Shown here piece after piece: positions 23,852-25,224 of a stretch of 64,000 nt of DNA (the first letter of the stretch is position 1; each line of letters starts with the position of its first letter). Where the stretch lies: NCBI GenBank assembly GCA_963676915.2, contig CAXXVK010000043.1:224001-288000 (forward strand), read 5' to 3'. The position numbers and the translations under genes are program-made. This stretch comes from Myxococcota bacterium. Lineage in GTDB: Bacteria; Myxococcota_A; SURF-8; G963663525. The notes below the pieces were generated by a model. The model was not told the DNA's origin and did not search any database. It was given only the letters and a program-made list of their open reading frames with translations.

Positions 23852-23915
23852 GATAAAGAAAAAACTCCTGAAATATCAATCGGTTCAATGGAAAGGGTAG
23901 CGACTGTGATTGAAG

Positions 23916-24848
23916 TCAAGCAAATTTTGGTTTCCACTCCTCCCTATTTTTAAGCATAGTATTCATGATAACGAGGAGTTTCCGCATAGATGCGATGACG
24001 GTGGTCATTTTGGGTTTACCCATAGTGACGTGCCTTTGATTGAAGGCTCGAATCACAGGGTTGTGCTGGATGGCGGACAAAGTGGGCATGTACAGTTGGG
24101 TGCGCACTTGCCTTCTTCCACCACCGGTCATGCGTTTGCCTTTGAACGTGCCGCTATCTCGATTGAACGGAGCGACGCCGACGAGAGCGGCGATTTGGCG
24201 CCGGTTGTATTCACCCAGTTCGGGCAAATCAACGATCAGGCAGTGAGCCGTGAGCGAACCGATACCGGGAACGGTCATGAGGCATCGAACCTTTTCGGAG
24301 AGCGATTCGTTGCGTTGAACGATGCTCCGTATCGCCTCCTCGATGCTTTCGACGTTCTTGTCCAGTGCTTTGATGATCGTTTTCAGACTGCGTGCGACAA
24401 GCTTGTCGTCGGCGTGTTCCATACGGTTTTTCTCTGCTGTTCGCATATCGATCAGTTGCCTTCGGCGAGCCGCAAGGGCTTTGAGTTTCAGACTCTCGGG
24501 AGTGATTTTTCGCATGTGACGGGGCTGGACCAGTGCGGCGTAGCGAGCGATGAGGTTGGCGTCGATGCGATCGGTTTTCGCTAAAAGTCCAAGAGACTGA
24601 GCGAAGGCGCGAATACGTCGTGGATTGACGACGGCCACATTGAAATTCCGTTTTTGCAGGAACTGGGCCAGGCGGTTTTCGTAGCCACCGGTGGATTCCA
24701 TGGCGACCAGATCTGGCGCGGCGTTGCTGATTTTACGAAACGCTTTTTTCATTCCTGCTGGGGTGTACTCAAAAGTCTCGACGGTTCGGGACGAACCTAC
24801 GGCCAGATCGAACGAAAGCTTGCTGATGTCGATTCCGACGGTTTCCAT
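23916..24848 (-). CDS. IS110 DEDD recombinase/transposase
   Basis: VGIDISK, MESTGGY, VNP, KTDRIDA (DEDD); VPGIG; [10 protein letters not shown] (conserved Ser); ASMRKLL. Likely ATG 24848 after AAGGAAGG. Confidence 0.95.
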
Positions 24849-24849
24849 C

Positions 24850-25022
24850 TCGTTCACCCTTCCTTGCTCATGCGGGCTCATCGGTGTACAATGGCCCTAG
24901 CGACTGTTCGGGCTTCCCGGACAAAACGGGCGGCGGATCCAGCTACACACGGGTTGAAAAACCCAAGGTCGGGACGATCTCGCCGCCCGATGCTCCCTGG
25001 GCGGCCGCCCAGGGAGCATCAC
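24850..25022 (-). ncRNA. Predicted bridge RNA of the IS110 element
   Basis: 5' hairpin (24989-25020); target-binding loop closed by a GGGCGGCG...CGCCGCCC-type stem; donor-binding loop. Guide segments match this element's own target and donor flanks. Confidence 0.8.
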
Positions 25023-25224
25023 CATTTTACCACAACAAACACCTGAAAACTGACACAATAAAGATCATACAAGGTCGGGTAAGTTTTTTGCCTGACACCC
25101 ATCTGATGGTTCAGTATTGTAAACTGAACCAAAACGTTGAAGAGCAGGATTCAATCCTGCTCCATCGAGGACGAACCAAGGGAAATGACAGGAATCATGC
25201 TCTAGTAAAAGACAAAACCGAAGC

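Follow-up and report, generated by a model that had tools for sequence, protein, structure and literature searches.

The DNA analysed here is a stretch of 64,000 nucleotides from a Myxococcota bacterium (contig CAXXVK010000043.1; hereafter the window, in which position 1 is the first letter). The segment at 23899-25071, read on the minus strand, is very probably a complete IS110-group insertion sequence of the IS621 type, most likely working as IS621 does. An earlier reading made from the letters alone (hereafter the sequence-only reading) had proposed an IS110 bridge-RNA recombinase architecture of the IS621 type for this region. The proposal was upheld by the Pfam domains of the recombinase, by its relatives in the PDB, by the match of a covariance model (R2) to the left-end RNA, by covariation in the helices of this RNA, by the tracking of flanks by guides among orthologues, and by an empty site in a related organism.

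Boundaries and organization of the element

The ends of the element were fixed by the empty site. In run X2, one contig of an organism diverged by about 5% connects position 23898 with 25072 and skips 1173 bases; two bases at this junction are ambiguous, and they read CT. The element is therefore fixed at 23899-25071 with a shared CT, and its length is 1173 bp if a single CT core is included, at the right end. The span of 23899-25080 given by the sequence-only reading is correct up to 25071; the remaining positions, 25072-25080, belong to the flank. CT is present at both junctions in six copies. Long terminal inverted repeats are absent, and the shared 2-nt core alone stands at both junctions, as is characteristic of the IS110 group. 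The left end contains 223 nt of non-coding DNA, and the right end extends 17 nt beyond the stop codon.

These proportions bear on the related IS1111 group (seekRNA type), whose members share the protein family and carry their guide RNA in the right end. We give the assignment to this group no probability. A right end of 17 nt is too short for an RNA, and it is the left end that holds the structured RNA. Furthermore, the inverted repeat is 4 bp here, against the 7-17 bp described for IS1111 (Durrant 2024, PMC11208160). Judged by sequence, the window element has all the defining traits of the IS110 group with a left-end bridge RNA and lacks those of the IS1111 group. The features of the element and its flanks, all on the minus strand, are as follows; LTG and RTG denote the left and right target guides, and LDG and RDG the left and right donor guides.

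25074-25096, minus: host hairpin resembling a repeated extragenic palindrome (REP), imperfect, GTCAGG...CCCGAC, ending at the insertion point (from the sequence)
25072-25079, minus: left target and core CCCGAC-CT (CCCGACCT), equal to the LTG; core CT at 25073-25072
23899-25071, minus: whole element, with ends common to six full copies and the empty-site contig of run X2
from 25071, minus: element start TGTATGATC... (TGTAT), adjoining the left flank aCCCGACCT at 25080-25072
25064-25069, minus: -10-like hexamer TATGAT at left-end positions 3-8, with a 17-nt spacer to TTGACT once the ends are joined
24989-25020, minus: 5' stem-loop, a 32-nt perfect palindrome (from the sequence and the fold)
24928-24988, minus: target-binding loop module (from the R2 alignment; the outer-stem and inner-hairpin pairs, helices 1 and 2, covary)
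24988-24976 with 24939-24928, minus: outer stem of the target module (R2)
24966-24973, minus: LTG CCCGACCT, equal to the left flank at 25079-25072
24964-24951, minus: inner hairpin of the target module (R2)
24943-24946, minus: RTG GTAG, complementary to CT-AC at 23900-23897
24857-24912, minus: donor-binding loop module (from the sequence, R2 and covariation, helices 3 and 4)
24912-24910 with 24859-24857, minus: outer stem of the donor module, CCC with GGG
24899-24907, minus: LDG ACAGTCGCT, the same 9-mer as the right end at 23907-23899
24897-24874, minus: inner hairpin of the donor module, GGGC with GCCC
24863-24866, minus: RDG CAAG, complementary to CT-TG spanning 25073-25070
23916-24848, minus: recombinase gene, 310 aa plus stop codon (from PF01548, PF02371 and the PDB matches)
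23914-23919, minus: -35-like hexamer TTGACT in the right end, overlapping the stop codon (from the sequence)
ending at 23899, minus: right end ...TTGACTTCAATCACAGTCGCT, core CT at 23900-23899
23897-23898, minus: right target AC; the right flank, ACCC..., runs from 23898, and AC is found in 7 of 7 right ends

The 3' side of the donor module overlaps the Shine-Dalgarno-like sequence AAGGAAGGG.

The predicted left-end RNA

The sequence-only reading had suggested a fold and a covariance-model search as checks of the left-end RNA, and the results of both speak for it. The fold has a z score of -4.3, and none of 200 shuffles was equally stable. The 5' hairpin which that reading had pointed out is the perfect palindrome listed above (25020-24989). 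A long hairpin was also seen by eye at the position of this stem-loop in orthologues, and six short inverted self-matches found in the genome copy search are a product of the palindrome.

For comparison within the family, a set of 80 loci from named genomes, with recombinases 39-54% identical, was used, and the regions upstream of the gene were aligned. An earlier covariance model (R1), in which the automatic consensus retained just 7 pairs, was left unused and R2 took its place. R2 was built from 35 orthologues on a 21-pair structure written by hand, with the window and its nearest relative (locus L015) excluded. In the 64-kb window, R2 matched 24848-24996 on the minus strand with 106 bits (E = 4e-25), while the two other matches in the rest of the window had E-values of 0.27 and 0.89. 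R2 also matched 79 of the 80 orthologous loci, of which 35 are the training set; the locus without a match is L032.

In the R2 alignment, which has 75 distinct rows, 96.4% of the cells form standard pairs, compared with 73.7% in shuffles, and compensatory changes on both sides were found at 17 of the 21 helix pairs. None of 500 shuffles reached any of five covariation measures. When the partners were shifted by 1-3 columns as a control, pairing fell to 34-54%.

Sub-threshold Rfam matches to RcsR1 and mir-341 fall on a hairpin at 25258-25288 and on the 5' palindrome, and were treated as chance.

Related elements were also observed in four of the eight same-order genomes that were searched (G003, G005, G007 and G009), with up to 8 copies per genome (G003 and G005). 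The best-conserved DNA of these elements is the bridge-RNA region (element positions 84-216), which is 78-83% identical, whereas identity in the 3' part of the gene is 67-68%.

Guides and the sequences that they match

The four guide assignments of the sequence-only reading hold at the positions listed above: the LTG equals the left flank, the RTG GTAG pairs with CT-AC, the LDG equals the right end, and the RDG CAAG complements CT-TG of the left end. The loops of the first module are predicted to pair with both halves of the target, in the window copy and in orthologues, and those of the second module match the right end at 9 of 9 positions (ACAGTCGCT) and complement CT-TG. All of these matches are located in internal loops of helices that are backed by the fold and by covariation in the family. 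If a uniform base composition is assumed, the probability that the left 8-mer recurs by chance in the 223-nt left end is about 0.003, and that for the 9-mer of the right end is about 0.0008.

The relationship between guides and flanks was further analyzed among the orthologues. The four loop segments were parsed from the alignment, and two fixed rules set the element ends: on the left, the nearest sequence matching the complement of the RDG plus TAT, and on the right, the initial 7 nt of the LDG (one mismatch allowed) followed by C. Among 71 distinct rows, a left end was assigned in 60 and a right end in 70. The 9 nt on the left matched the 5' loop of the first module of the same element at a mean of 6.60 of 9 positions (n = 57, with 33 scoring at least 7), compared with a mean of 4.22 for non-cognate pairs (n = 3172, with 102 scoring at least 7). 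On the right, 5 nt compared with the extended RTG gave a mean of 4.25 of 5 for cognate pairs (n = 67; 39 perfect) and 1.20 for non-cognate pairs (n = 4328; 6 perfect). The right end agrees with the LDG at 7 or more of 9 positions in nearly all orthologues. This analysis is a small-scale repeat of the covariation analysis of 2,201 donor and 5,511 target pairs in Durrant 2024 (PMC11208160).

The same 8-mers and 9-mers could in principle be sub-terminal repeats recognised by the protein, or a preferred target motif, in an IS110-family element whose left end makes no functional RNA. We regard this as extremely improbable. The repeated words sit in internal loops of strongly covarying helices, a pattern to be expected of an RNA but not of DNA bound by a protein. 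The match to the right flank is a reverse complement whereas that to the left flank is direct, as in the two-strand pairing described for IS621 (PMC11208160). The guides, moreover, co-vary with the flanks among orthologues having different targets, and a requirement for the RNA has been demonstrated for IS621 (Durrant 2024, PMC11208160; Hiraizumi 2026). The matching words are best read as guides of a bridge RNA.

The right guide is 7 nt long in many orthologues and effectively 4 nt (CT plus AC) in the lineage of the window, as in wild-type IS621. The extended RTG side (reverse complement ACACA) agrees with the flank of the window copy, ACCCT, at 3 of 5 positions, that is, it is unmatched beyond GTAG. 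At the remaining three right-guide positions, 0-1 flank bases are matched in most of the seven copies.

The recombinase

The recombinase contains PF01548 (DEDD_Tnp_IS110, E = 1.1e-25), the N-terminal RuvC-like DEDD domain, and PF02371 (Transposase_20, E = 2.8e-18), the C-terminal Tnp domain with the catalytic serine. In a phmmer search of the PDB, the transposases of ISCro4 (E = 7e-36) and IS621 (E = 4e-30) were the only solved relatives at E <= 0.001. D7, E51, D93, D96 and S232-G233 are aligned to the conserved D/E/D/D/S-G of both proteins and are invariant across 26 homologues. The catalytic residues of IS621 are given as D11, E60, D102, D105 and S241 (Hiraizumi 2024, PMC11208158). The nearest proteins in a large collection are 95% identical, and the next are at most 62% identical. 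A DNA-level search of a plasmid collection gave three weak matches to IS110 genes, with 7-10% coverage.

Copies of the element and the host target

The host genome (5.18 Mb in 74 contigs) contains six full copies of the element, one copy cut by a contig end (C58) and one fragment of 81 nt. The six full copies differ by 0-4 substitutions; the differences are confined to the gene, and the RNA region and the ends are identical. The left flank is CCCGACCT in five of the six full copies and ACGGACCT in the sixth (C53). All seven right ends, i.e. those of the six full copies and of the C58 copy, are followed by AC. The sequence-only reading had expected further copies to sit in matching targets, and CCCGAC-CT-AC is indeed found exactly in five of six, with C53 deviating.

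In this genome the element targets a repeated hairpin of the host, GTCGGG...CCCGAC-CT-AC, at its 3' end. The other copies, C53 excepted, are placed behind GTCGGG-N-CCCGAC hairpins. The genome has 133 unoccupied CCCGACCTAC sites, compared with 9.9 expected naively, and 120 of the 133 have a GTCGG[GA] arm within 30 nt upstream. GTCGGG-N7-17-CCCGAC hairpins number 340 in the genome, and 118 of them are followed by CTAC.

The REP-like family shows loop variants, namely GCAAGAAATTTGC, GCTAAAAATTAGC and GTGAAATCAC, and its members often form inverted pairs. Examples of the family in the window are the hairpins at 25225-25247 and 25074-25096. A related element in a locus of a Myxococcota metagenome-assembled genome (L015) is flanked by a similar hairpin. 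At C60:177082 on the minus strand, CCCGACCT is followed by TGTAT; this site has no wider likeness to the element and was treated as chance or a very short remnant.

Points against this reading and the possibility of a dead copy

Several observations weigh against the reading of the element as a working insertion sequence of the IS621 type. No family in Rfam 15 matches the left-end RNA at its gathering score. The alignment behind the pair counts was fitted to R2 and is thus biased toward the structure; in the unfitted MAFFT alignment, compensatory changes are already present at 16 of 23 predicted pairs. The match of the LTG covers 8 nt and not 9, because the flanks of all six copies have A or G opposite T at 24974. 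Among the orthologues, 24 of the 57 cognate left scores are 6 or lower, and the left-end rule mis-calls some loci (L015 scored 3, and 9 of 9 by eye). Because of these mis-calls, the cognate left figure is an underestimate.

The C53 copy (G000:C53:153662-154834) belongs to the same group of observations. It lies in ACGGAC-CT-AC (ACGGACCT), outside any hairpin, and the guide mismatches its left target half at two positions, those most distant from the core. Pairing is therefore not strictly required at every position. As a putative natural off-target, this copy shows where mismatches are tolerated.

Two further points concern activity. The gene carries insertions in two of the six copies, C22 (2 nt) and C72 (1 nt), which may be real frameshifts or assembly errors. 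The 14-nt motif of the joined ends, which would mark a circle junction or tandem copies, was found 0 times in the genome assembly, though this is expected for a rare intermediate. Both points would fit a dead or decaying copy, in which the architecture is present and movement has been lost. It is, however, very improbable that the window copy is of this kind. Its frame is open for 310 aa with all catalytic positions, its 1173 bp are identical to those of the C19 copy, no more than 4 substitutions separate the six copies, and the site is empty in the relative that is about 5% diverged. The near-identical copies and the empty site in the relative therefore point to recent movement. The word intact, used by the sequence-only reading, applies to the window copy and does not apply to the two copies with insertions in the gene. 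That reading also called the element programmable, a property that it would have by analogy with the experiments on IS621 (Durrant 2024, PMC11208160). We keep to the reading of the window copy as a complete element that most likely works as IS621 does.

Predicted junction promoter and proposed mechanism

Joining of the right and left ends would create a predicted sigma-70 promoter, TTGACT-N17-TATGAT. TTGACT lies 15 nt from the tip of the right end, and the 17-nt spacer to TATGAT runs across the joined core. A -35 hexamer with at least 5 of 6 matches is found at the equivalent distance in 37 of 59 orthologues; with the hexamer of the integrated left flank used instead, the count is 0 of 59. A junction promoter has been described for IS621, together with weak read-through expression from integrated copies (Durrant 2024, PMC11208160; Hiraizumi 2026).

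In the integrated copy, a promoter scan of the left end on the minus strand found no sigma-70-like site at the scan thresholds. By eye, TAAAAT preceded by TG-n was recognised at left-end positions 40-48, 4 bases before the 5' hairpin, and it is also present in the C60 derivative described below. It is possible that this motif gives low-level expression from integrated copies.

About 190 nt upstream of the element, the preceding gene is closed by a strong terminator-like hairpin at 25258-25288 on the minus strand (13 pairs, then a T run). This hairpin could limit read-through transcription into the integrated window copy.

A sub-terminal inverted repeat of 4 bp, ATCA...TGAT, flanks the donor. 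It co-varies among the orthologues, with complementarity at 4 of 4 positions in 36 of 59, compared with 185 of 2712 non-cognate pairs.

The steps of circle formation, promoter, RNA and recombinase action that we propose are inferred from the work on IS621. The element would leave the chromosome as a circle closed at the CT core, with the right end next to the left end. The rebuilt promoter would then drive a non-coding RNA of about 175-210 nt together with the recombinase gene behind it. This RNA would consist of the 5' hairpin and two internal-loop modules, and ACAGTCGCT and CAAG of the second module would pair with the joined element ends (ACAGTCG-CT-TG). A tetramer of the DEDD/Ser recombinase would hold both RNA-DNA pairings and exchange strands at the CT core, and the circle would be inserted without target duplication beyond the shared CT. 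After the exchange, C 24942, which follows the RTG, could pair with G at donor position 7, and G 24862, which follows the RDG, could pair with C at target position 7. Such handshake guides have been described for IS621 (Hiraizumi 2024, PMC11208158).

A derivative without bridge RNA and recombinase

The host genome also contains a single-copy derivative of 566 bp (G000:C60:183312-183877, minus strand; L008:1016-1581). Its left part corresponds to left-end positions 1-55 of the element (89-95% alike), and its core reads AT, TGCAT in place of CT, TGTAT. The middle is about 480 bp of AT-rich foreign DNA, with 34% G+C compared with 52% in the genome; a 130-aa open frame in this cargo matched no Pfam family at E <= 0.1. 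The right part consists of the last 17 nt of the right end of the element, followed by AC. The derivative has neither the bridge RNA nor the recombinase. It is conceivable, although unlikely, that such minimal ends alone suffice for unrelated cargo to be brought into REP sites by a recombinase and a bridge RNA that the full copies provide in trans. If so, the derivative would belong to a bridge-RNA insertion sequence as its non-autonomous cargo element. Given its AT core, the derivative itself would not be expected to be excised in this way. Since the stretch is single-copy, there is no evidence of its movement.

The sX15 RNA of Xanthomonas

The Rfam family RF02234 (sX15) seems to describe an IS110-group bridge RNA in reverse complement. 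The sX15 model matched the window at 24852-24998 on the strand opposite to the bridge RNA, with 30.2 bits compared with its gathering score of 55. The window RNA is accordingly not a member of RF02234, being below the gathering score and on the wrong strand. At the type locus of sX15 on the plasmid pXCV183 (NC_007507, 116378-116536; L101:1379-1537), R2 matched the minus strand with 44.5 bits (E = 4e-11), and the sX15 model matched the plus strand with 150.9 bits.

Both sX15 and its complement asX7 were detected by Northern blot, and 10 homologues were noted in Stenotrophomonas (Schmidtke et al. 2011, PMC3300014). sX15 is filed as a small RNA with role unknown, on the strand antisense to the bridge-RNA sense. 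Unlike the window RNA, the plasmid copy of sX15 has no IS110 gene annotated beside it. In the literature collection that was searched, no paper links sX15 to a bridge RNA or asX7 to IS110.

Comparison with known systems

Judged from its sequence, the element is distantly orthologous to IS621 and ISCro4 and has a target and a donor of its own; it represents a known mechanism and not a new kind, and it opens no new question. Like IS621 of E. coli, it has a two-domain DEDD/Ser recombinase and a CT core. Its predicted RNA is likewise placed in the left end and has a 5' stem-loop, one loop for target binding and another for donor binding, and the right target pairing spans 4 bp, CT-AC included. The promoter regained when the ends are joined is another shared feature, predicted from sequence in the window element. 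The target of IS621 is also the end of a REP hairpin, given as ATCAGGC-CT-AC (PMC11208160), while that of the window element is CCCGAC-CT-AC.

The two elements differ in several respects. The IS621 protein, of 326 aa, is only distantly alike (E = 4e-30), and the window protein has 310 aa. IS621 has 9 matched left-guide positions, compared with 8 in the window element, whose left target is CCCGAC. The inverted repeat described for IS621 is ATA/TAT, and ATCA/TGAT of the window element lies one register away. IS621 is known from experiments, whereas the window element is known from sequence alone. The string ACAGTAT-CT-TGTAT, which the sequence-only reading gave as the IS621 donor, is absent from the main text of PMC11208160.

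The best solved relative by sequence is the ISCro4 transposase (PDB 9t56; E = 7e-36), to which residues 3-301 are aligned with shared catalytic positions. ISCro4 was compared by protein only.

The window element adds to the bridge recombinases a compact orthologue (310 aa, 1173 bp) that was apparently recently active. Bridge recombinases are under development as RNA-programmed tools for DNA insertion. The host genome offers a natural record of such insertion, with six copies carrying identical guides, the target CCCGAC-CT-AC, the donor ACAGTCG-CT-TG and 133 free sites, together with one off-target with two distal mismatches and an empty site in a relative.

The choice of target also resembles that of ISPpu9 and ISPpu10, IS110-family elements of Pseudomonas putida. 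These are described as inserting into repeated extragenic palindromes (PMC12288879) or into a conserved intergenic sequence in which a stem-loop precedes the paired target on its 5' side (bioRxiv 10.64898/2026.03.19.712850). For ISPpu10, a contribution of the hairpin to specificity has been reported. The geometry of the window element is the same, except that one of its six copies (C53) lies outside any hairpin. A partnership between an RNA-guided insertion sequence and host REP sequences, known in E. coli and Pseudomonas, is thus now seen in a distant lineage.

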